Sequence record: MK047718.1
Source: Escherichia phage p000y
Strand: one strand, 5' to 3'
DNA: 64,000 nucleotides
Translations under genes and position numbers: made by a program
Notes under the pieces: model-generated
Databases searched by the model: none
Told to the model about the DNA's origin: nothing
Seen by the model: only the letters and a program-made list of their open reading frames with translations
Shown here: one piece after another, positions 1-29,421 of the stretch
Layout of the letters: each line of letters starts with the position of its first letter
How positions within the stretch are numbered: the stretch's first letter is position 1

Positions 1-2
1 GC

Positions 3-1397
3 CATAACGTAATTGTTAACTGGTGTGATATTATTCCTGACTTTGGTTCATGGTCTTGGAATGTTAACGCAATCTATGTTAAGGGTGATGAATGTCGATA
101 TAATTTCGATGGTGAAAATATCACTAACGTAGGTTCAACAGGTGGTAATGTTGTAGGAATTTATCAGTTCAAAGACTGGGAATTCTACATGGGTTCTACT
201 GATGAGGAAATTCACGAATACTGCAAAGGTCGTGATTTCGTAGAATTCCTTTACGGCAGTGCATTCAATAAATCAGAGCTTATGAATCTAATTGATTTAG
301 GTGATATGCCTAAACTTGAAAAGGCTCATGAAGTTCGTGAACTGAATCGTAGTTTTAATGCAGTTGAAATTGGCGAAGAAACTGTAACTAAATTCGCGTT
401 AACCGAACAAGGTCGAGCTCTTCAAAAAGATGAGATTTCATGGTATTTGAAAGTGAAATCAGATTCAGTTCCTCAGTTAGTTTCGGTAAATGAAAATAAT
501 TTTGAAATGGAACGTATTAAAGGTAAGCCGGCATTTGAATATATTAAATCCAAATCAAGTCTTGCTCGTCCACAAATTGTTGATGCAATTTTAGATGCAC
601 TGAAATTCAGCACGGACACTTATTTTGTAAGTCCTGAAACTGTTCGCCGTGATTTCACTAAAGAGTTCTATACGAAAGTTATTGATCGTTGTGAAAGCAT
701 TCAGCCATTGATTGATTCATTTGGTAAAATCACACACGTGAACTACACTAAAATTGGACGTCTGAAGCCAATGTTGAAACAAGCTTTAGAACATCTTATT
801 CGTTATCATAACCGTTCTCAGGGACAGTACTCTGTTATTCATGGTGACCCGAACTTCAGTAATACTATGATTACCGATAACGGCGAAGTCAAGTTTATCG
901 ACCCTCGTGGATATTTTGGTGAAACCAAGATTTACGGGCCAAAATTATATGATGAAGCTAAAGTGCTTTATGCTGTTTCAGGTTATGATGAATTCAATGC
1001 TAATCCGACCTGGGGACAGTTTACTATTGATGAAACAACTTGTAATGTGACTATTAACATCAATCCATTAGTTTACAAATATGGAAAGATGAGTTCGTTT
1101 AACGAGTATCATCATTTGGCTGTAGCAATTATCTGGATTGCATTAGGTGGTTATTTCAAGAATAATCCACTTAAAGCGGTTGCCGCATATTATAAAGGTA
1201 TGGAACTTCTGACTAAGCAATTACGTAACATGGGCCGTGTACTTCAAGACGGCTCTATTAGTTATGACGTAGCAGAACCTGTAACGGCTACTCTGATTAC
1301 AAAAAATCCTGGTAAATGGGTACTAACTGATAAAGAAACTGGTGTTTCCTATCGTCCAATCGGCGGCGATATCACTCATCAATGGGAACGAATCTAA
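3..1397 (+). CDS. Kinase-fold protein (APH/choline-kinase-like), probably 5'-truncated by the window edge
   Basis: Frame is open from nt 3 with no stop before the ATG at 189 and no clear SD at 189. Brenner-type motif HGDPNFSN...KFIDPRGYFG typical of APH/ChoK-like phosphotransferases. Confidence 0.5.
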   Translation, partial: HNVIVNWCDIIPDFGSWSWNVNAIYVKGDECRYNFDGENITNVGSTGGNVVGIYQFKDWEFYMGSTDEEIHEYCKGRDFVEFLYGSAFNKSELMNLIDLGDMPKLEKAHEVRELNRSFNAVEIGEETVTKFALTEQGRALQKDEISWYLKVKSDSVPQLVSVNENNFEMERIKGKPAFEYIKSKSSLARPQIVDAILDALKFSTDTYFVSPETVRRDFTKEFYTKVIDRCESIQPLIDSFGKITHVNYTKIGRLKPMLKQALEHLIRYHNRSQGQYSVIHGDPNFSNTMITDNGEVKFIDPRGYFGETKIYGPKLYDEAKVLYAVSGYDEFNANPTWGQFTIDETTCNVTININPLVYKYGKMSSFNEYHHLAVAIIWIALGGYFKNNPLKAVAAYYKGMELLTKQLRNMGRVLQDGSISYDVAEPVTATLITKNPGKWVLTDKETGVSYRPIGGDITHQWERI

Positions 1398-1783
1398 TGC
1401 ACCGTGTAGAAAACATGCTTAATCTTTGTTTTGATGTCGATGATTGTATAACAGAGTGGAATAACAATCGTGATTACGTGAACTTCAAACCAGACGTCGA
1501 AATGGTGTCTGCCATTAATGCCCTGTATGATGCAGGGCATACCATAACGCTTTACACTGCCCGTGGTATGAAGTCGGTAGGTCCTGGTCGTATAGCAATT
1601 GACATTCTCCCAAGTCTGATTCAGAACTTGGAAAACATTGGTTTGAAGTACCATAATTTGCTAACACATAAACCAGTATATGATTGGATTATCGACGACA
1701 AAGCTATGCGTCCTGACGAATTCAAAGCTCTTATGAATAAAGGCGAATTCGAAACATTTAAATCATATAAACCAAATCTATAA
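1397..1783 (+). CDS. Small HAD-superfamily phosphatase-like protein
   Basis: TAATG overlap with the upstream ORF. N-terminal FDVDDCIT (DxDx motif I), later TARG and IDDKA motifs consistent with a capless HAD fold. Track start 1382 is an alternative. Confidence 0.5.
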   Translation: MHRVENMLNLCFDVDDCITEWNNNRDYVNFKPDVEMVSAINALYDAGHTITLYTARGMKSVGPGRIAIDILPSLIQNLENIGLKYHNLLTHKPVYDWIIDDKAMRPDEFKALMNKGEFETFKSYKPNL

Positions 1784-1829
1784 TAATTTAAGTAAGACCT
1801 GCAAAAACCATCGCATCAATTAACGCGAG

Positions 1830-2999
1830 ATGCAAAAAATGAATACTTTTAAAATCGGAACGAATTTTGATTTAGCTCTTCTTGATAAAATCGTAGAGCT
1901 CAATAAAACCTATCCTAATAGCTTGATAAACGAAGTATATGGCTCTACAAGAGAAATGGCTTTTGTAGCAGCCAGACCTGATTTTAGGCTTCCTGACGTT
2001 GACAAAAAGATGTTAGAAGACTACGTTAAACGTTGTAACGAATTAGGTATTTGCTTTAACTATACACTCAACACGATAAATCCTGGTTCAAAAAGAGAAC
2101 TAGTTGAGTGGAAGAAGAAAGCTATTCAGGATTATGTTCAGTATCTTTGGTCAATAGGCGTATGGCGTATTACTATCGCTAACCCTGTTGTTATGGAAAT
2201 TGTTCGTGAAGTCAATAAAGATATTGAGATTGAAGTTTCAACAATTCTACATGTCGATGCGGTAACTCAAATCAAATACTTACATGACCAATATAACATC
2301 AAAAAGGTCTGTTGCGGAATTCATAAGAACCGTTCAGTTTCTTTCCTGAAGCGTGCAGCAGAGTTTTGCAATAAGAACAATATAATATTTGAAGTTCTTG
2401 TAAATGAGTTCTGTTCTAATGCTGGTAAAGGGTATACAACACATTGTAGTTATCGTGACTCTTGCTATATTTTCCATAGTACTGATGTTACCGCTGATGA
2501 TGCTAAATCCTTAAATGGATATCCTATGCAGCACTGTATTAAAGCTCGTGATACAGACCCATTTAACTGGTTGAGAACTCGTTTTGTTCGTCCTCAAGAT
2601 TTGAAACTTTATAATGATATTGGTATCACTCAATTCAAAGTTTCAGGACGTACAGGTAGCACAGACTACATTTTGAAAGTTCTTGAAGCATACGCTTCTG
2701 AAAAGTTTGAAGGTAATTTGTTAGAACTGTGGAAGCCTTTAGAGACTATTTTCACTCTTGAAAATGAGACTGAGTTTTCACATACAGTAAATATTGAAAC
2801 CTCTTTGTTAGATGGCTTTTTAGAAAAAAGGTGGTTCAGACATCCAGATTTTGATTGTGCTAATGAAATCTGTGGGTCAACGTGTACATATTGTGAAAGG
2901 TATTATAAACGTCAATTATCTAAAAACGGGTTAGCAGAAAACTCCATATCTATTATTGATATAACTAACTCTGATGACGCTTTGAGGTACCCGGAATGA
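1830..2999 (+). CDS. Cys-rich 389-aa enzyme, peptidase-U32-like (RlhA/TrhP/UbiU family) by motif resemblance; alternatively an Fe-S protein with C-terminal CxxxCxYC
   Basis: Segments EVYGSTRE, FEVLVNEFCSNAGKGYTTHCSYRDSCY and ITQFKVSGRTGSTDYILKV resemble U32 TIM-barrel motifs as I recall them. C-terminal CANEICGSTCTYC cluster. Family call is unverified. Confidence 0.4.
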   Translation: MQKMNTFKIGTNFDLALLDKIVELNKTYPNSLINEVYGSTREMAFVAARPDFRLPDVDKKMLEDYVKRCNELGICFNYTLNTINPGSKRELVEWKKKAIQDYVQYLWSIGVWRITIANPVVMEIVREVNKDIEIEVSTILHVDAVTQIKYLHDQYNIKKVCCGIHKNRSVSFLKRAAEFCNKNNIIFEVLVNEFCSNAGKGYTTHCSYRDSCYIFHSTDVTADDAKSLNGYPMQHCIKARDTDPFNWLRTRFVRPQDLKLYNDIGITQFKVSGRTGSTDYILKVLEAYASEKFEGNLLELWKPLETIFTLENETEFSHTVNIETSLLDGFLEKRWFRHPDFDCANEICGSTCTYCERYYKRQLSKNGLAENSISIIDITNSDDALRYPE

Positions 3000-3235
3000 T
3001 TTCTAGAAAAAGTTTTAATTATAAACTTAACGAAGAGATTTTGACTATGAAACTGAACACTAACGAACAAATTCTTAAAAAGGCCCTTATGGGCCTGTTT
3101 GAAACCAAAGCGGCTAAAGTGATTAAAGAACCTGTTCAATTGGAATACTACACTGATGCATTCCTTCATAGTGTTCTTGGAAGTATAGATTCTGAAGCTT
3201 TACGTTATATCAACATTGTCAAGAAATTCAAATAA
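2996..3235 (+). CDS. Hypothetical protein (79 aa)
   Basis: ATGA overlap with the upstream gene; same-strand packing. Confidence 0.4.
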   Translation: MISRKSFNYKLNEEILTMKLNTNEQILKKALMGLFETKAAKVIKEPVQLEYYTDAFLHSVLGSIDSEALRYINIVKKFK

Positions 3236-3277
3236 GCTTTACGAATTGAGTATATAATAAATTGTATTGAGGTAAAC

Positions 3278-3994
3278 ATGGGAAAACATAACACAATGAA
3301 ATATATCAAAGCCGCAGATTTTCAAACCGCATTTAAAGCAGTCAATCGTGAAATTTTAGAAAACCCGGAATTCGTAACTGATTCTCGTATTGGACGTTGT
3401 AATGAAATTGGGTCTATGACAGTAGTTGTTGACACTCCATCATCATTCAAAATGACCGACCCACGTATTAACCGCATCTCTTATGAATATGCCGAAGACT
3501 TCTGGAAGTTTATGATTTCTGGTGGTACCAACGCAGAAGAAGCGTTTAAGGCATATCCTAATGTCGCTAAATTTATTTCTAAACCAAAATCAGATGTTTT
3601 GCCGGCGAACTTCAACACTTTCTATGGTCCTCGCATTGCGGCCCAATTACCAACTCTTCTAAAAGAACTTAAAGAAAAACCTAACTCTCGAAGAGTTGTG
3701 TTCCAAATTCTAGAAAGTTCTGATCAGGCTTTGCTTGATTCGGACGAAACACTTGAATATCCATGTACTGACTCAGTAACTTATTATATTCGTGATGGTA
3801 AGCTTTATACCCACTGTCATATGCGTTCTCAGAACTGTGCTGTTGTTATGCAGTTGGATTTTTATCTCCAAGGAAAATTACTTCATTATATCGCTAACGA
3901 ATGCGGTGTAGAAGTTGGTGATTATACTCATACCATGGTAAGTGCCCATGTGTTTGAACGTGATTTTGATTATGTTAAAGGATTCCTTGACTAA
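3278..3994 (+). CDS. 42: Deoxypyrimidylate hydroxymethylase of the thymidylate-synthase family (gp42-like dCMP hydroxymethylase)
   Basis: PNSRR, PCTDSVTYYIRD (catalytic Cys) and MRSQN...QLD motifs align with T4 gp42 PDSRR, MCTNTVQYLIRD, MRSND...RND. Sits directly upstream of the uvsX block as in T4. Appears more diverged than neighbouring core genes. Confidence 0.75.
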   Translation: MGKHNTMKYIKAADFQTAFKAVNREILENPEFVTDSRIGRCNEIGSMTVVVDTPSSFKMTDPRINRISYEYAEDFWKFMISGGTNAEEAFKAYPNVAKFISKPKSDVLPANFNTFYGPRIAAQLPTLLKELKEKPNSRRVVFQILESSDQALLDSDETLEYPCTDSVTYYIRDGKLYTHCHMRSQNCAVVMQLDFYLQGKLLHYIANECGVEVGDYTHTMVSAHVFERDFDYVKGFLD

Positions 3995-4893
3995 TGGCTA
4001 TTTTCCGCGTACCAATCTTGAGTATGCGGTCTTATGAAACTGGACAGTATGCTATCCTTAAGGATGGCAACTTCCAACTTCATTTGCACCGTGCTAATCC
4101 GGGTGATGTGATTACATATCCACGTAATGCATCTGATATTAAAGAATGCGAACGTCTTTTCCCAGAATTTAAGTTTGTTCCATTATGGTATAAAGATAAC
4201 GCGTATAACACTCGTAAATATTTCTGGACTGAAAATGAATTTGTGGTTGATTCATTAATTGATTATTATGATTGTGATTTTCTAATCACAGATATCACTG
4301 GTTATGGCGGCGCTTTTGATGTGGAATTCAATTTCAATATCACTGCAGACCCTAATAAACCACGTTTTTATATTGATGAATTCTTAAAAACCGACATGTT
4401 GTCTGTTAATCGTTCACTTCAAACTACTGTGTTGAATGAACGTCAAAAAGAAGTGCTGGTTAACGCAGGTGCAGATGGTAATAAGATTATCGTAACGCAG
4501 AAAGTTATACGTCCTTCCATCATGCAGCGTCTTGTAGGTGATTTGGCTCCTATTCATCTAGATGGTATTTTTCATCCATTTCGAATTAGTGACCCATGTT
4601 ATCGTTTTGAACAAGTGGTTGAATGTGCAATTCAATTAGGTCAACCGCTTTATATAACCGATCCAAATAATAGCTTCGACAGAAATAAGTATCCTGAAGA
4701 AGCGCTGATTCGAATTTTTAAACCAACTAAAACTGAGTACTATCAAATTCTTAAAGGACGTCCGAAAATTCAATATTTCGAAAATCCTGAAGAAGTATTC
4801 CATCCAGGTCTTGGTGAGTTCATCTACTTTAATGCTTTAATTTCTTCGCCGTATAATATACCTAAATACGAAGATGTCGTAATCGAGGAATAA
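3994..4893 (+). CDS. Hypothetical protein (299 aa) in the position T4 uses for beta-glucosyltransferase
   Basis: TAATG-coupled to gene 42. No resemblance to T4 beta-GT that I can see. Contains a YYDCDFLITD (DxD-like) segment. Function is inferred only from position. Confidence 0.5.
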   Translation: MAIFRVPILSMRSYETGQYAILKDGNFQLHLHRANPGDVITYPRNASDIKECERLFPEFKFVPLWYKDNAYNTRKYFWTENEFVVDSLIDYYDCDFLITDITGYGGAFDVEFNFNITADPNKPRFYIDEFLKTDMLSVNRSLQTTVLNERQKEVLVNAGADGNKIIVTQKVIRPSIMQRLVGDLAPIHLDGIFHPFRISDPCYRFEQVVECAIQLGQPLYITDPNNSFDRNKYPEEALIRIFKPTKTEYYQILKGRPKIQYFENPEEVFHPGLGEFIYFNALISSPYNIPKYEDVVIEE

Positions 4894-4894
4894 A

Positions 4895-5443
4895 ATGGCT
4901 AAAATTATTTTAGTAGATGGCCCGGATAATGCTGGTAAAACAACTTTCATTAATGACATAATGGAAATTAGTGAAAGATATGTAAAGATTGATTTCCCTA
5001 AACGAACAGTTGATGGACGTTTCGATGTTAAGTCTCGAAATGAAGTTGGCTGTTTCGAAACGATGTTGAATTATTTAGACCCTACTAAGATTTATCTGTT
5101 AGACCGTGGATATATTAGTAACTGGGTTTATGGACGTATTCGACAAGATGCGGACTCGATTCTTGACGTTTATGAACAGGACTATGTTCGTCTTTGCCAA
5201 AACCATGATGTGTTCACAATTATTTTAACACGTAACGAAATGACTGAAAGTTTTGAAGACGACCTTATTACTTTGTCTTCATTCGGTTTTAATACAGTCA
5301 TTTCACATTTTGAAGAGTTTGCAATTCATAACAAAATCCAAACGTATCAATTACTTAATCATGATGGTGCTAACAAAGTTATAGGATTTAATGCAAGCGA
5401 ACGTAATTATTTGATTACAGAAATTATCAAATGGGCTCGTTAA
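4895..5443 (+). CDS. P-loop nucleotide kinase, thymidylate-kinase-like
   Basis: Walker A GPDNAGKTT and LLDRGYISNWVYG (TMK-like DR(Y/H)xxSxxxYxG) motifs; 182 aa. Confidence 0.5.
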   Translation: MAKIILVDGPDNAGKTTFINDIMEISERYVKIDFPKRTVDGRFDVKSRNEVGCFETMLNYLDPTKIYLLDRGYISNWVYGRIRQDADSILDVYEQDYVRLCQNHDVFTIILTRNEMTESFEDDLITLSSFGFNTVISHFEEFAIHNKIQTYQLLNHDGANKVIGFNASERNYLITEIIKWAR

Positions 5444-5461
5444 GAGCCATTTAAAGTTTTA

Positions 5462-5488
5462 AATGCTGTATAACCCTTAGTATATAAT
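5462..5488 (+). promoter_or_regulatory. Candidate MotA-dependent middle promoter upstream of uvsX
   Basis: MotA-box-like aaTGCTgtA with TATAAT starting 19 nt after the TGCT core; same spacing as the candidate upstream of gene 39. Confidence 0.4.
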
Positions 5489-5541
5489 CATCTTATCTTT
5501 TAAACATGAGTAAAATATAATGATGCCTATGGAAAAATACA

Positions 5542-6714
5542 ATGTCTGATTTAAAATCTCGTCTGATTAAAGCTTCTACTTCTAAAATGACTGCAGACTT
5601 GACTAAGTCTAAGCTGTTTAATAATCGTGATGAAGTCCCTACTCGTATTCCGATGTTGAATATTGCATTAGGTGGTGCACTGAATGCCGGGTTGCAATCA
5701 GGCTTAACTATTTTTGCTGCTCCTTCTAAACACTTTAAAACGTTGTTTGGGCTGACCATGGTTGCAGCATATATGAAGAAATATAAAGATGCAATCTGTT
5801 TGTTTTATGACTCAGAATTCGGTGCTTCAGAATCTTATTTTCGTTCAATGGGTGTTGATTTAGACCGTGTAGTTCATACTCCGATTCAATCTGTCGAACA
5901 ACTTAAAGTTGATATGACTAATCAGCTTGACGCGATTGAACGCGGTGATAAAGTTATTATCTTTATCGATTCAATCGGTAATACTGCATCTAAGAAAGAA
6001 ACCGAAGATGCGTTGAACGAGAAAGTTGTAGGTGATATGTCTCGTGCTAAGGCACTTAAATCTCTGTTTCGCATTGTGACCCCGTATCTGACTATTAAAG
6101 ATATTCCGTGTGTTGCAATTAACCATACCGCAATGGAAATCGGCGGACTATATCCTAAAGAGATTATGGGTGGTGGTACAGGTATTCTTTACTCTGCTAA
6201 CACTGTATTCTTTATCTCTAAACGTCAGGTTAAAGAAGGTACAGAATTGACCGGTTATGACTTCACGTTGAAAGCAGAAAAATCTCGTACAGTTAAAGAG
6301 AAATCTACTTTCCCAATCACAGTTAATTTTGATGGTGGTATCGACCCATTCAGTGGCTTGTTAGAAATGGCAACTGAAATTGGTTTTGTAGTTAAGCCTA
6401 AAGCCGGGTGGTATGCTCGTGAATTCCTTGACGAAGAAACAGGTGAAATGATTCGTGAAGAGAAATCATGGCGTGCTAAAGCTACTGATTGTGTAGAATT
6501 CTGGGGACCGTTGTTTAAACACAAACCTTTCCGTGACGCAATTGAAACTAAATATAAACTAGGTGCTATCTCTTCTATTAAAGAAGTTGATGACGCTGTT
6601 AATGACCTTATTAATTGCAAAGCAACAACTAAAGTTCCGGTTAAAACTTCTGATGCTCCGTCTGCAGCAGATATAGAAAACGACCTTGATGAAATGGAAG
6701 ATTTCGATGAATAA
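5542..6714 (+). CDS. uvsX: UvsX RecA-like recombinase
   Basis: 390 aa; strong similarity to T4 UvsX from the N-terminus onward; synteny 42-uvsX-40-41. Confidence 0.95.
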   Translation: MSDLKSRLIKASTSKMTADLTKSKLFNNRDEVPTRIPMLNIALGGALNAGLQSGLTIFAAPSKHFKTLFGLTMVAAYMKKYKDAICLFYDSEFGASESYFRSMGVDLDRVVHTPIQSVEQLKVDMTNQLDAIERGDKVIIFIDSIGNTASKKETEDALNEKVVGDMSRAKALKSLFRIVTPYLTIKDIPCVAINHTAMEIGGLYPKEIMGGGTGILYSANTVFFISKRQVKEGTELTGYDFTLKAEKSRTVKEKSTFPITVNFDGGIDPFSGLLEMATEIGFVVKPKAGWYAREFLDEETGEMIREEKSWRAKATDCVEFWGPLFKHKPFRDAIETKYKLGAISSIKEVDDAVNDLINCKATTKVPVKTSDAPSAADIENDLDEMEDFDE

Positions 6715-23941: not shown

Positions 23942-25759
23942 ATGATTAAAAATGAAATTAAGGTATTGTCAGATGTAGAACATATTAAGAAACGTAGTGG
24001 TATGTATATTGGTTCTTCTGCTAAAGAAGCACATGAGCGTTTTTTGTTTGGTAAATATCAACAAGTTGAATATGTTCCAGGTCTGGTTAAATTAATCGAT
24101 GAGATTATTGACAACTCGGTTGATGAAGCTATTCGTACATCATTTAAGTTTGCAAATAAAATTGATGTGCAAATTAAAAATAATCAAGTTTCGGTGGAAG
24201 ATAACGGACGTGGTATTCCTCAAGGTTTAGTTACCGACCAAACAGGTGAACAAATTCCTGGTCCTGTAGCAGCCTGGACTATTCCAAAGGCCGGTGGTAA
24301 CTTTGGTGATGACTCTGAACGCAAGACTGGTGGTATGAACGGCGTCGGGAGTAGTTTAACTAATATCTTCTCTACGTTGTTTACAGGCATCACGTCAGAT
24401 GGCGAAAATGAAATCACTGTTAACTGTTCAAACGGAATGGAAAACAAATCATGGTCTTCTAAGAAATCTAAAGGTAAAGGCACTAAAGTAATCTTCACTC
24501 CTGATTTCTCTTCATTTGAAGAGCATAATTTATCTCAAATTTATTTAGATATTACTTTAGACAGACTTCAAACATTGGCAGTCGTTTATCCTGATATCAA
24601 GTTCACATTTAATGGTAAAAAGGTTGATGGTAATTTTAAACGATTTGCTAAACAATTTGGTGAAGATAACATCATTCAAGAAAATGATAAAGTCTCTATA
24701 GCATTCACAACATCACCAGATGGCTTCCGTCATTTAACTTATGTGAATAACATCCATACTAAAAATGGTGGTCATCATGTTGAATGTGTAATGGATGATA
24801 TCTGCGAACATCTTTTGCCTGGTATTAAAAAGAAATATAAGGGTATTGAAGTCACTAAAGCTCGTGTTAAAGAATGCCTCACAATGTTGATGTTTATTAG
24901 AGACATGAGCAATATGCGTTTTGATTCTCAGACTAAAGAACGTTTAACGTCAACGTATGGTGATATTCGTAATCATATCCAATTAGATGCTAAGAAAATT
25001 GCTCAGGCACTTCTTAAAAACGAAGCCTTGATTATGCCTATTGTTGAAGCAGCATTAGCTCGTAAATTGGCGGCAGAAAAGGCTGCAGAAACTAAAGCAG
25101 CTAAAAAGGCAACTAAAGCTAAGGTTCATAAGCATATTAAAGCTAACCAATGTGGTAAAGACGCAGATACGACATTGTTCTTAACAGAAGGTGATTCTGC
25201 AATTGGTTATCTCATTGATGTTCGTGACCGTGAACTACACGGCGGATTCCCATTACGTGGTAAGGTGATGAATAGCTGGGGTATGTCATATGCGGATATG
25301 ATGAAGAACAAAGAGCTCTTTGATATCTGTGCTATCACAGGTCTTATTCTTGGTGAAAAGGCCGAGAATACGAACTATCGTAATATTGCAATTATGACTG
25401 ACGCAGATCACGACGGTCTTGGAAGTATCTATCCGGCTTTGCTTGCTTTCTTTAGTAATTGGCCTGAATTGTTTGAACAAGGACGTATTCGCTTTGTTAA
25501 AACACCTGTAATTATTGCACAAATTGGCAAAACTCAAAAATGGTTTTATACTGTAGCTGAGTATGAAGAAGTTAAAGATACACTGCCTAAGCATAGTATT
25601 CGATACATCAAGGGATTAGGCTCCCTTGAAAAGTCAGAGTATCGTGAAATGATTCAGAACCCTGTGTACGACGTAGTTAAACTTCCTGAAAATTGGAAAG
25701 AACTCTTTGAAATGTTGATGGGTGATGATTCAGAACTTCGTAAAGAATGGATGTCCTAA
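23942..25759 (+). CDS. 39: DNA topoisomerase II large subunit (GyrB-like), continuous 39/60 fusion
   Basis: 605 aa; GHKL ATPase motifs (IDEIIDNSVDEA, GGMNGVGSS), TOPRIM (LTEGDSA) and the C-terminal part corresponding to T4 gp60 in one uninterrupted frame. Confidence 0.9.
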   Translation: MIKNEIKVLSDVEHIKKRSGMYIGSSAKEAHERFLFGKYQQVEYVPGLVKLIDEIIDNSVDEAIRTSFKFANKIDVQIKNNQVSVEDNGRGIPQGLVTDQTGEQIPGPVAAWTIPKAGGNFGDDSERKTGGMNGVGSSLTNIFSTLFTGITSDGENEITVNCSNGMENKSWSSKKSKGKGTKVIFTPDFSSFEEHNLSQIYLDITLDRLQTLAVVYPDIKFTFNGKKVDGNFKRFAKQFGEDNIIQENDKVSIAFTTSPDGFRHLTYVNNIHTKNGGHHVECVMDDICEHLLPGIKKKYKGIEVTKARVKECLTMLMFIRDMSNMRFDSQTKERLTSTYGDIRNHIQLDAKKIAQALLKNEALIMPIVEAALARKLAAEKAAETKAAKKATKAKVHKHIKANQCGKDADTTLFLTEGDSAIGYLIDVRDRELHGGFPLRGKVMNSWGMSYADMMKNKELFDICAITGLILGEKAENTNYRNIAIMTDADHDGLGSIYPALLAFFSNWPELFEQGRIRFVKTPVIIAQIGKTQKWFYTVAEYEEVKDTLPKHSIRYIKGLGSLEKSEYREMIQNPVYDVVKLPENWKELFEMLMGDDSELRKEWMS

Positions 25760-25801: not shown

Positions 25802-26902
25802 ATGAAAGTTATGTTTATCCCATCTCGCGCAGTCCCATTTAACCCAGAACGTGTACAAGGTGGTCTTGAAGCAGTACATTTAAATGTGTTGAAATATTTA
25901 GTTTCTATCTGTGCTGATATTGATTATATCGGTTTTGATAATGACACATTTGGTGATTGGAAGGTTAATCATCATCCTGTTGGTCATCTGACAAAATTCA
26001 GTCTAGGTATGAGTTATACTATGGCTCGTAAGATTGTTGAACTAGCCGGCATCCATGAATACGATTTCGTTGTTACTATGGAACCGACTAAACTAACCGT
26101 TCAGGCAATTAAAGACGCAGGCCTCTCTAAAGTTCATAAGAATTTTATGGCAACACCATTTGAACCGGTATCTCGTGGCATTGTTCAAATTTGGGACCAG
26201 ACTATTCAAATTCATAAGAATGGTGGTAAGAGTTATGCTCCTACTAAAGCCTTCCGTGAATTTGAACGCAAATATTGTTATATGACTTCAGGTCTGACTG
26301 ACAAAATTGATTATGATTATTGGCGAGCAAATCCGTTGTTTGAAGCCGAAGATTATCCGGTTATTTGTTTGAATGAGAAACCTGAAGTTCTTCCGGCGAC
26401 GGATCTGATTATTAGTGCACAACGTTATGACACTAAAATGCGTCGTACTGATGTTGCTCTTGAAGCGATTAAAGCACTAGGCGAAAATGGTGCAGGATAC
26501 TGTCCTAGTAAATGGGCACCACCAGCTAAATATCCTGTTATTATTGATGCTCCACACAGTGAAATCATGGAACGCCTTAAAACAGCTAAAGCACTTATTA
26601 ATACGTGTCCTGACACAGGTACGGTAGAGAATAGTTCTATTGAAGCCATCTCTAAAGGTGTCCCTGTAATCCAGTTAGTTTTTAAGGATTATCCTCATGC
26701 GACATTTGAATACGACCCAGATACTGTGCGTGTAGAAATTGATTCCTCTACTCCTAAGAAAGAAGTAGTTGCGCTTTACACAAAAGCTGTATTAGAATTC
26801 ACTGACACATACGAAGCTCGAGTTAAACGTGCTGAAGCAGTATGGAAGAAGTATAACCGAGATGCAGTTGTTGCGATGTGGGATAAAATCTTCACAGCGT
26901 AA
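25802..26902 (+). CDS. GT-B fold glycosyltransferase (GT4-like), candidate DNA sugar transferase
   Basis: C-terminal DTGTVENSSIEAISKGVPVI resembles the GT-B EX7E / donor-binding segment; 366 aa; inserted between 39 and rIIA. Confidence 0.55.
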   Translation: MKVMFIPSRAVPFNPERVQGGLEAVHLNVLKYLVSICADIDYIGFDNDTFGDWKVNHHPVGHLTKFSLGMSYTMARKIVELAGIHEYDFVVTMEPTKLTVQAIKDAGLSKVHKNFMATPFEPVSRGIVQIWDQTIQIHKNGGKSYAPTKAFREFERKYCYMTSGLTDKIDYDYWRANPLFEAEDYPVICLNEKPEVLPATDLIISAQRYDTKMRRTDVALEAIKALGENGAGYCPSKWAPPAKYPVIIDAPHSEIMERLKTAKALINTCPDTGTVENSSIEAISKGVPVIQLVFKDYPHATFEYDPDTVRVEIDSSTPKKEVVALYTKAVLEFTDTYEARVKRAEAVWKKYNRDAVVAMWDKIFTA

Positions 26903-27207: not shown

Positions 27208-29421
27208 ATGATTATTGAAACGGCTAAAGAAACAATTATTGGTTCAGGCGGTAAGAGCACAGCATTTACTATTCAAGGCAATAGCAAAGTTTATAAGATT
27301 TTGTCTAATGACCTTTATACAAACAAAGAATTGGCTTGTGTACGTGAATTAATCACAAACTGTATCGATGGACAAATTCTTAATGGTTGCACCGACAAGT
27401 TTATTGTTCAGGCTCCAGGTCGTTTAGACCCACGTTTTGTAGTTCGAGACTTTGGTCCTGGTATGAGTGATTTCACCATTCGAGGTAATGATGAAGAGCC
27501 AGGAATCTATAACTCATATTTTGCTTCAACTAAAACATCGAGTAACGATTTCATTGGTGGTTTCGGTCTCGGTTCTAAAGCTCCATTAGCATATACTGAT
27601 ACGTTTAACCTTACGTCTTATCACAACGGTGAAGTTCGTGGTTACGTAATTTACCAAGATGACACGGGTCCACAAATTAAGCCAACCTTTGTAGATAAGA
27701 TGGGCCCTGATGACAGTACGGGTGTAGAAGTAGTTGTACCGGTTAACCCAGAAGATTTTGAAAAGTTCGCATCCGAAATTGCTTATGTTATGCGTCCTCT
27801 CGGCGATATTGCAGAAGTTCGTGGTGTTAAAGATATTAAATACTTTCCTGAATTTGACGATGTATATTTGGCCAAGGAAGCTCCATGGGGTGAACGTGGT
27901 AATATCATGGCTGTTTATGGTGGTATTGTATATCCAATCGGAAGTGTTATTAAAGAACAAACATGGATGATGACACGATGCACTACAGCTTATATTAAAT
28001 TCCCTATGGGTGAACTAGATGTAGCCCCGTCTCGTGAAGCATTGTCATTTGATAAACGTACAGTAGCAAATATCCATAAACGCGTTGCAGAAATCGATGC
28101 AAAATTATTTGCTGAAGATTCTAAGAAATGGATTGATTGTGAATATCCACGTCATGTATTCCGTGAAATCGATTCTCTTGGTTACTCTGCTCGTAAATAT
28201 ATGGAAAAGGCCGGGTCTAATATTGAATCACTGAAATACTCTAAAGAACAACTAACTTATTCTGAGTTGTACAAACGTTTTAAAATGGGGCCTGAGTGGT
28301 GTAATCTTGGTGTCGTATACGATATCGTTGAATCCCCTCGTCTTCGTCGTATTCGTGAAAGCGGTAGCTCAACGGCAACCATTTCAATTAACAGTCTGAT
28401 TGGCATTAACATTAAAAACGTTGAAATTGTTATTGACGACGTTAAGGGACGCGTTCCATTAATGCGAGCTCTTAATTCAATTGAAATGTCTAAAGACGAG
28501 GTTAAATTAACCGGTAAAGTTCCACGCGGTTTTGGTAAAAGCGTACTATTCGTTGACCCTACAGACGAAGATGCAATGAAACTTCTGGAACGCCTTAAAG
28601 TTATCTTTGATGGCGACAACATTAACATGTACAAGACTTCAGAGCTTTTACAAATCGTTAAGCCATGGATTGAAGTCAAGACTCGTTCTAATGGGCCTCG
28701 TCCTAAATCCCCAAGTGCTCATCGGTTCTTTAAGAATGAAAACGATGTTTGGGTATCAGAAGACCTCTTTATTCCGGCAAGTGAAGCAGATGAAATCCAA
28801 GGTTATGCTATAGTTCGTAATCGTTCTAATGCTGAATGTCTTGACTCAGATAAAGGTTGGTTGAACTATGACTCCAATTTCTTGACCCGTATTGCTGATT
28901 TGTCAGGTATTAAAGAGTTCACTGTAGTTCGTCCACAGATTGCTAAGAAAGTTCGTAAACTTGGTGAAGTAGAATGCTTGTTCGAAAAATCAATTAATGA
29001 CTATATTACGCTAATCGATAAAGTAGATTATGATGAGTATGTATCACCAAGTCGTAGAGCACAGCCCTATCTAAACCATATTACTCGTAATGAAGAGCTT
29101 AACTTCCTTAGTAAGTATTTTAGCTCTAAGAACAAAGAAATCAGTAAAGACTTTGCAAAACTCTCCACAGTAAATAATCGCTGGGGATGGAATCGATTCG
29201 CAGGTGCTACTAATACAGACCTGAATAAGAAGTTAGAATTGTGTGCTAAAATTTTCGATAAGCTTAAAGATAATGCTTACGATAATGATGATAAAATGGT
29301 TATTGAATTCGAAACCAATTATCATATTGTGTCAGACTACATGGGACGACGTGGTACTCTTTCCAAAGAACAGGTCGCTCAAATCGTTAAATTCATGAAG
29401 GCCGTGGAAGCGGCCAAATAA
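27208..29421 (+). CDS. rIIA: rIIA (membrane-associated lysis inhibition / exclusion protein with a GHKL-like N-terminal domain)
   Basis: 737 aa; N-terminal ATPase-like motifs (ELITNCIDG, GGFGLGSK); size and position match T4 rIIA. Confidence 0.85.
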   Translation: MIIETAKETIIGSGGKSTAFTIQGNSKVYKILSNDLYTNKELACVRELITNCIDGQILNGCTDKFIVQAPGRLDPRFVVRDFGPGMSDFTIRGNDEEPGIYNSYFASTKTSSNDFIGGFGLGSKAPLAYTDTFNLTSYHNGEVRGYVIYQDDTGPQIKPTFVDKMGPDDSTGVEVVVPVNPEDFEKFASEIAYVMRPLGDIAEVRGVKDIKYFPEFDDVYLAKEAPWGERGNIMAVYGGIVYPIGSVIKEQTWMMTRCTTAYIKFPMGELDVAPSREALSFDKRTVANIHKRVAEIDAKLFAEDSKKWIDCEYPRHVFREIDSLGYSARKYMEKAGSNIESLKYSKEQLTYSELYKRFKMGPEWCNLGVVYDIVESPRLRRIRESGSSTATISINSLIGINIKNVEIVIDDVKGRVPLMRALNSIEMSKDEVKLTGKVPRGFGKSVLFVDPTDEDAMKLLERLKVIFDGDNINMYKTSELLQIVKPWIEVKTRSNGPRPKSPSAHRFFKNENDVWVSEDLFIPASEADEIQGYAIVRNRSNAECLDSDKGWLNYDSNFLTRIADLSGIKEFTVVRPQIAKKVRKLGEVECLFEKSINDYITLIDKVDYDEYVSPSRRAQPYLNHITRNEELNFLSKYFSSKNKEISKDFAKLSTVNNRWGWNRFAGATNTDLNKKLELCAKIFDKLKDNAYDNDDKMVIEFETNYHIVSDYMGRRGTLSKEQVAQIVKFMKAVEAAK

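Follow-up and report, generated by a model that had tools for sequence, protein, structure and literature searches.

A fused nucleotidyltransferase-kinase and a coupled HAD phosphatase in Escherichia phage p000y, probable orthologues of the AfhE/AfhF route to UDP-arabinose

Gene organization at the edge of the window

The window considered here is a 64,000-nucleotide stretch of Escherichia phage p000y (sequence record MK047718.1), and its subject is the pair of genes with which the window opens, the first encoding a fused sugar nucleotidyltransferase-kinase and the second a small HAD-family phosphatase. The window belongs to a Mosigvirus (RB69-like, T-even) and is 99.8% identical to Escherichia phage PECP20 by megablast; at least 80% of its first 3.3 kilobases is covered by each of 152 database records in the same kind of search. 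The first gene is cut by the window edge. Frame 3 of the plus strand runs uninterrupted from base 3 until the TAA stop at 1395-1397, and these 464 codons are codons 98-561 of a 561-residue protein. In near-identical phages the coding sequence starts 97 codons upstream of the window edge and is 561 residues long, and one such database protein (P0001, 561 residues) agrees with the window portion at 463 of 464 residues. The entry "189..1397, 402 aa" in the list of open reading frames (ORFs) is an effect of the window edge, position 189 being the first ATG past it. A preliminary description of this DNA had proposed a kinase whose N-terminal region extends beyond the window, and the relatives supply that region as 97 more codons.

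The second gene is a small ORF at 1397-1783 whose ATG shares its A with the TAA stop of the first; an alternative in-frame ATG lies at 1382. The resulting TAATG overlap accords with the translational coupling that had been suggested for the pair.

Domains and predicted fold of the fusion protein

The 97 residues upstream of the window, taken from relatives, begin MKKAVILGAGLATRL, which is the signature of sugar-1-phosphate nucleotidyltransferases. The N-terminal region of the full-length protein matches the Pfam family NTP_transferase (E=1.3e-9), and the GxGxR...K signature is present in this RmlA/MurU-like domain. In an alignment of the fusion protein with 48 homologues, down to 29% identity, G10, R14, and K24 of the transferase domain are invariant. 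The truncated N-terminal domain, which had been guessed to be a nucleotidyltransferase, is thereby identified as one.

The C-terminal half carries the catalytic loop HGDPNFSN, the APH/ChoK-type motif on which the first description of the kinase was based, and K227, E241, H377, G378, D379, N384, and D397 of this domain are invariant in the 48-sequence alignment. Pfam kinase matches (Fructosamin_kin, EcKL, and RIO1) were all below threshold, and the kinase assignment therefore needed structure prediction. An AlphaFold2 model of the fusion protein, built from the 48-homologue alignment, has a predicted local distance difference test score (pLDDT) of 93.5 and a predicted template-modelling score (pTM) of 0.90. 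All fold matches of this model are ChoK/APH kinases or RmlA/GlmU-type transferases, and Foldseek against the PDB returned for the N-terminal half only transferases of the RmlA, GalU, MurU, LicC, GMPP, and HddC types. On its motifs and predicted fold, rather than on a significant sequence match, the C-terminal half is assigned as a choline-kinase/APH-fold kinase. By sequence, the nearest solved relative of the full-length protein is LicC; a PDB sequence search gave no match for the window fragment and only distant nucleotidyltransferase matches for the full-length protein, with no AfhE-type structure found.

Past the kinase fold, the model shows the 54-residue C-terminal extension as short strands (pLDDT 81-91). 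This extension, residues 508-561, is apparently absent from distant homologues: their alignments span roughly 88% of the window fragment, and tblastn matches in Vibrio and Tenacibaculum phages stop at residue 502 of the fusion protein. In both Vibrio phage D490 and Tenacibaculum phage PTm1, the homologue match ends before the extension and no adjacent HAD gene is present. One possibility, suggested by clade-level co-occurrence alone, is that the extension is a docking site for the HAD protein.

The HAD phosphatase

The identification of the small partner as a HAD phosphatase stands. HAD motifs I-IV are complete (D13-x-D15, T54, K84/K92, and D100-D101) and invariant in 15 family sequences, and the best NCBIfam match is the capsule biosynthesis phosphatase family TIGR01689 (1.6e-13), at 50.7 bits versus a cut-off of 162 bits. 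This family (EcbF/BcbF) and the Vibrio cholerae structure 1xpj are the nearest non-phage sequence relatives of the protein and are likewise small cap-less HADs, but the phage HAD lies far under the family cut-off. A PDB sequence search found 127 of 128 residues identical to PDB entry 9iqw, with 1xpj the next match at 1.4e-10. There was no match to a GmhB model, HAD-SF-IIIA being detected only below threshold (E=0.024, 14.7 versus 44.6 bits), and no GmhB structure was among the PDB sequence matches at E<=1.

Conservation of the gene pair

In tblastn searches of phage records, the fusion protein was found in 373 records and the HAD protein in 375. The pairing is not a product of chance, as the counts for the two genes are equal in nine organism-name groups: Escherichia (176), Acinetobacter (57), Klebsiella (25), Shigella (15), Enterobacter (9), Serratia (9), "Enterobacteria" (8), Proteus (7), and Yersinia (6). 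Annotated coordinates show the stop/start overlap also in Kanagawavirus CIP9, Tegunavirus TG1, Winklervirus Virsaitis27, Lazarusvirus DLP3, Dhakavirus dhabil, and Thanatos-2, and fusion-protein identity in phages with the overlap goes down to about 42% (range 42-57%). Klebsiella phage PWKp16 departs from this arrangement, its annotation placing a small ORF between the members of the pair. In Erwinia phage Virsaitis27 (locus L004, 4352-4990), a gene for a Seg-like homing endonuclease is inserted between the HAD and U32 genes. Insertions into the module are evidently tolerated at the HAD/U32 junction and not at the junction of fusion gene and HAD gene.

A more distant arrangement is found in Tenacibaculum phage PTm1 (locus L013, 5001-7939), where a fusion homologue of 27.5% identity is followed by a His_Phos_1 protein (9e-23) and then by a ThyA homologue. 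Here the HAD is displaced by a phosphatase of unrelated fold, a case of non-orthologous displacement in which the phosphatase step is retained. A phosphatase of different fold in the same slot therefore gives independent comparative support for a sequence of kinase, phosphatase, and transferase. As PTm1 is unrelated to the T-even phages, its locus also hints at similar cytosine glycosylation outside that group.

Relationship to the published UDP-arabinose pathway

The two p000y proteins have near-identical counterparts in phage RB69, with 342 of 343 residues identical between the fusion protein and ORF052c and 126 of 128 between the HAD and ORF051c. RB69 DNA carries arabinose, and a frameshift correction joined ORF053c and ORF052c of that phage into one gene; the joined ORF and the upstream SIS-domain isomerase ORF055c were proposed as the source of uridine diphosphate (UDP)-arabinose (Thomas et al. 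2018, PMC6024577). Bas46 of the BASEL collection (GenBank MZ501056) annotates the pair as "putative enzyme involved in UDP-arabinose biosynthesis" and "putative phosphatase". The modified base is arabinosyl-5-hydroxycytosine, in which arabinose is placed on 5-hydroxycytosine and not on hydroxymethylcytosine (Lee et al. 2026, PMC13326640). According to the sections of Lee et al. (2026, PMC13326640) that relay the work of He et al. (2026), AfhE of phage HY126 converts arabinose-5-phosphate to the 1,5-bisphosphate and also makes UDP-arabinose, and arabinose-1-phosphate is formed from arabinose-1,5-bisphosphate by AfhF, a Mg-dependent phosphatase. Lee et al. (2026, PMC13326640) name RB69 gp52:53 and gp51 as the counterparts of AfhE and AfhF. 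AfhE/AfhF of HY126, gp52:53/gp51 of RB69, and gp82/gp81 of DLP3 are equivalent pairs that share with p000y the N-terminal nucleotidyltransferase, the C-terminal kinase, and the adjacent HAD. The likeness extends to the gene neighbourhood, and the p000y proteins are 98-99% identical to their RB69 counterparts, with single-residue differences only. The entry code of 9iqw adjoins those of 9iqc, 9ir2, and 9iqu, the strongest PDB matches of the neighbouring thymidylate-synthase (ThyA) homologue, and Lee et al. cite a crystal structure of the HY126 enzyme; taken together, these points suggest that the PDB entries derive from the HY126 study.

We therefore consider it very probable that the pair represents Mosigvirus orthologues of AfhE and AfhF and forms part of a phage-encoded route to UDP-D-arabinofuranose. 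In such a route, ribulose-5-phosphate would first be converted to arabinose-5-phosphate, either by a KdsD-like isomerase whose phage gene lies immediately before the window (a KpsF/GutQ/KdsD-like protein, E=3e-30) or by host KdsD/GutQ. The C-terminal choline-kinase/APH-fold domain would then use adenosine triphosphate to phosphorylate arabinose-5-phosphate at C1, giving arabinose-1,5-bisphosphate, from which the 128-residue Mg-dependent HAD, made by coupled translation, would remove the 5-phosphate. The N-terminal RmlA/MurU/LicC-type domain would next join arabinose-1-phosphate and uridine triphosphate to give UDP-arabinose. Finally, arabinosyltransferases encoded nearby would move the arabinose to 5-hydroxycytosine of the phage DNA and so shield it from restriction.

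The present analysis provides the domain folds, the catalytic motifs, the gene context, and the near-identity with 9iqw and the RB69 proteins; the enzyme activities and the step order come from the literature, namely He et al. (2026) in the account given by parts of Lee et al. (2026, PMC13326640). Those parts describe a route from arabinose-5-phosphate through arabinose-1,5-bisphosphate and arabinose-1-phosphate to UDP-arabinose, which is the chemistry anticipated by the preliminary description, namely phosphorylation at C1 followed by removal of the distal phosphate. The substrate in that account, arabinose-5-phosphate, was also the first candidate in the list of sugar phosphates put forward for screening.

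Several points weigh against this assignment. For the p000y proteins themselves, which would be expected to act like AfhE and AfhF of HY126 by an orthology traced through RB69 as equated by Lee et al. (2026), the support is comparative. Sequence-level support for the kinase is weak. The Thanatos group found no activity of the orthologue TH1_060 with xylose-1-phosphate (PMC12838424). Lastly, Table 1 of Lee et al. (2026, PMC13326640) gives the reverse order, with the HAD acting on arabinose-5-phosphate and the kinase on free arabinose. That paper is internally inconsistent, its Table 1 order standing beside the bisphosphate route in its section 27. In favour of the assignment, on the other hand, TH1_060 is essential for propagation of Thanatos (PMC12838424).

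Comparison with other kinase and transferase systems

The preliminary description had drawn a parallel with the ADP-heptose pathway. HldE combines a ribokinase/PfkB-type kinase with a cytidylyltransferase-type adenylyltransferase, and HddA is a GHMP kinase. The parallel survives as pathway logic but not as homology. HldE with GmhB, and HddA with GmhB and HddC, are analogous to the phage pair, which consists of a ChoK/APH kinase and an RmlA-like transferase and so differs in its kinase and transferase folds. Membership in the HldE/GmhB system was rejected on fold, the fusion protein having neither a PfkB nor a CTP_transf_like Pfam match.

By fold, the closest pairs are AmgK-MurU of N-acetylmuramic acid (MurNAc) recycling and LicA-LicC of phosphocholine activation, in which a ChoK/APH-type kinase is followed by a minimal RmlA-like nucleotidyltransferase; MurU, LicC, and LicA rank among the top structural matches of the fusion protein. 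In those systems, however, the enzymes are separate proteins, the substrates are unphosphorylated, and there is no phosphatase, whereas in the phage one protein carries both, the transferase ahead of the kinase, and a phosphatase acts between their reactions. An identity as an aminoglycoside-resistance enzyme or protein kinase was also rejected: the kinase shares its polypeptide with a sugar nucleotidyltransferase and is encoded within a DNA-arabinosylation cluster, and the kinase Pfam matches are sub-threshold.

Step order, substrate, and the role of the phosphatase

Among the alternatives, the one that survives best keeps the same enzymes and substrate and reverses the order, so that the HAD would make free D-arabinose, the kinase would act on this free sugar as an anomeric kinase comparable with AmgK or maltokinase, the N-terminal domain would complete the route to UDP-arabinose, and no bisphosphate would be formed. 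This is how Table 1 of Lee et al. (2026, PMC13326640) labels the two proteins. We nevertheless consider this order improbable, as it is contradicted by the text of the same paper and by the biochemistry cited in the relevant parts of it (PMC13326640). In addition, the kinase has invariant basic residues (R213, K322, R326, R399, and K417) beyond the presumed ATP-binding Lys227, and these would suit an anionic substrate.

It could also be imagined that the pair activates something other than arabinose, either by a LicA/LicC-like route to phosphocholine or a cytidine diphosphate (CDP)-alcohol or by acting on another pentose or deoxypentose. LicC and choline kinases are the best structural matches, and Thanatos DNA has been reported to carry a (deoxy)pentose (PMC12838424). 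A LicA/LicC route needs no phosphatase, however, and the DNA of Mosigviruses (RB69, NP) contains arabinosyl-5-hydroxycytosine. The genes are flanked by an arabinose-5-phosphate isomerase on one side and by a ThyA homologue, a glycosyltransferase, and a nucleotide kinase on the other, and the closeness to the RB69 proteins (98-99% identity) likewise speaks for arabinose. A different substrate is accordingly very improbable.

Equally hard to credit is a HAD that works on the nucleotide pool, as a nucleotidase or polynucleotide phosphatase, and lies beside the kinase by chance: "polynucleotide kinase" does occur among its GenBank annotations, and AFDB Foldseek pairs RB69 gp51 with a putative 5'(3')-deoxyribonucleotidase (Lee et al. 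2026, PMC13326640), but the overlap with the fusion gene is conserved in annotated coordinates at every examined Straboviridae-type locus except that of Klebsiella phage PWKp16, the organism-name counts equal those of the fusion gene, the best family is that of capsule-biosynthesis sugar phosphatases, the same slot in PTm1 is filled by a non-homologous phosphatase, and AfhF has the sugar-bisphosphatase activity reported by He et al. (2026) in the account of Lee et al. (2026, PMC13326640). Neither a resistance or protein kinase nor a plain nucleotidase, the outcomes that the preliminary description had set against its own proposal, was found.

The assignment of the pair to UDP-arabinose synthesis is thus retained, and this role is already known from Thomas et al. 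(2018), the Bas46 annotation, He et al. (2026), and Lee et al. (2026); no novel reading survives for the pair.

Neighbouring genes and annotations

The features of the window are collected in Table 1. Downstream of the pair, the ORF at 3994..4893 is a putative consumer of UDP-arabinose; it has no Pfam match. Far from this cluster, the ORF at 25802-26902 is probably, by position alone, the second Mosigvirus DNA arabinosyltransferase (RB69 gp3). A promoter and terminator scan of positions 1-6000 gave sites no more numerous than in shuffled sequence, and no transfer RNAs were found in the window.

Table 1. Positions of the fusion and phosphatase genes, their parts, and other features of the p000y window, with the loci of other phages used in the U32 comparison
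Feature	Position	Strand	Basis and remarks
afhE-like gene, 3' part (codons 98-561 + stop)	3..1397	+	Predicted bifunctional arabinose-5-phosphate 1-kinase/UDP-arabinose pyrophosphorylase; RB69 ORF53_52c orthologue
Nucleotidyltransferase domain remainder, residues 98-205	3..326	+	Limits from model; residues 1-97 with GxGxR...K upstream of window
Choline-kinase/APH-fold kinase domain, residues ~212-507	345..1232	+	Limits from model
Catalytic loop HGDPNFSN (Brenner motif HxDxxxxN)	840..863	+	Sequence; invariant in alignment
Metal-binding IDPRG	897-911	+	Sequence
54-residue C-terminal extension, residues 508-561	1233..1394	+	Past kinase fold
TAATG stop/start overlap, fusion gene/HAD gene	1395..1399	+	Sequence
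afhF-like HAD phosphatase gene, 128 residues	1397..1783	+	RB69 ORF051c orthologue; predicted arabinose-1,5-bisphosphate to arabinose-1-phosphate
Peptidase-U32-family gene (RB69 ORF050c orthologue)	1830..2999	+	Pfam Peptidase_U32 7.4e-11
79-residue ORF	2996-3235	+	Overlaps U32 stop (ATGA)
Thymidylate-synthase homologue; 5-hydroxy-deoxycytidine monophosphate (dCMP) synthase in RB69 (abstract of Lee et al. 2026)	3278..3994	+	Strongest PDB matches 9iqc/9ir2/9iqu, E=2.9e-160, all 238 residues
Putative DNA arabinosyltransferase 1, RB69 gp46:47 position	3994..4893	+	Position and length as in RB69/Bas46 clusters; Lee et al. 2026 Table 1
Thymidylate-kinase-like nucleotide kinase, RB69 gp45 position	4895..5443	+	Relatives' annotation; Lee et al. 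2026 Table 1
Topoisomerase gene	23942-25759		Adjoins 366-residue ORF
366-residue ORF, no Pfam match	25802-26902	+	Between topoisomerase gene and 27208-29421 ORF
737-residue ORF, no Pfam match	27208-29421		Presumed rIIA from size and position
U32/chorismate-mutase loci compared (other phages)	L004 4992-6502, L005 4829-6231, L006 4829-6231, L008 4874-6264		

Annotations of this cluster in related phages are inconsistent and often wrong. In GenBank records of relatives, the fusion protein is named "bifunctional protein GlmU" or "mannose-1-phosphate guanyltransferase", the HAD "phosphoheptose isomerase", "capsule biosynthesis protein", or "polynucleotide kinase", the glycosyltransferase "RNA polymerase binding protein", and the small ORF "P-loop NTPase". 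The unusual names of the HAD probably stem from its TIGR01689 match.

The U32 gene and a possible anaerobic hydroxylation

The gene that follows the pair encodes a U32-family protein, for which a tentative role can be suggested. It is conceivable, though on balance we think it unlikely, that this protein is an oxygen-independent, prephenate-dependent cytosine C5-hydroxylase through which the phage would obtain 5-hydroxycytosine anaerobically, in parallel with the ThyA-like synthase that depends on O2 and flavin. Several members of the U32 family, among them TrhP and UbiU/V, are Fe-S, prephenate-linked hydroxylases. RlhA, also of the U32 family, forms 5-hydroxycytidine in 23S rRNA, a reaction that depends on prephenate and Fe-S clusters (PMC5727448). 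The ThyA-like 5-hydroxy-dCMP synthase uses O2, and the U32 gene is listed merely as "sugar or heterocycle reductase" in Table 1 of the paper that describes it (Lee et al. 2026, PMC13326640).

The U32 protein was found in 221 phage records and is unusually conserved, at least 80% identical in all of them, including phages whose fusion protein is only 43-52% identical; a CX5CX3CX2C cluster is retained near its C terminus. The U32 stop and the start of a true chorismate mutase gene overlap in Winklervirus, Kanagawavirus, Marfavirus, and Thanatos-2, and in Tegunavirus the mutase lies one small ORF after the U32 gene. The mutases beside U32 match Pfam CM_2 at 1.7e-11 to 8e-8, all above threshold, and a chorismate mutase is present in 54 records. 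In Thanatos-2, the U32-mutase pair is still adjacent though relocated downstream of the ThyA, glycosyltransferase, and kinase genes. The U32 gene was not seen among phages of Acinetobacter, a strict aerobe, in the 221-record set, nor at the DLP3 locus. The coupling to the mutase, the cysteine cluster, the RlhA precedent, the O2-using synthase, and the Acinetobacter pattern together make an oxygen-independent hydroxylase attractive.

Other observations weigh against the hydroxylase idea. The Dhakaviruses of E. coli also are without the U32 gene, and the U32 protein gave no significant pairwise BLASTP match to E. coli UbiU or RlhA, its link to these proteins consisting of the Pfam family match and a weak NCBIfam UbiU match. 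Moreover, the chorismate-mutase slot of p000y holds an unrelated 79-residue ORF. This ORF equals the CIP9 mutase in length and occurs in close Mosigvirus relatives only; it is more variable than its neighbours (80-96% identity) and is cut to 47-58 residues in some database clusters. That it might be a diverged chorismate mutase was considered and rejected, as BLASTP gave no alignment, Pfam no match, and hhalign a probability of 0.2%. Among the papers available for searching, none was found to propose an oxygen-independent hydroxylase role for U32, and He et al. (2026) may already address it.

Implications

The pathway was proposed in 2018 and reported as biochemically established in 2026. The present analysis adds an independent check, a correction of widespread mis-annotations, and the retention of the phosphatase step where a histidine phosphatase replaces the HAD, and the remaining novelty of the module is confined to the neighbouring U32 gene. 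The gene pair gives a T-even-type phage an activated sugar, UDP-arabinose, whose synthesis is not known from Enterobacteriaceae (Lee et al. 2026, PMC13326640), in line with the earlier proposal that the phage could produce a nucleoside diphosphate sugar donor foreign to its host. With arabinose on every cytosine, the phage can escape restriction and CRISPR nucleases, and the pathway thus bears on the arms race between phages and their hosts and on the choice of therapeutic phages.

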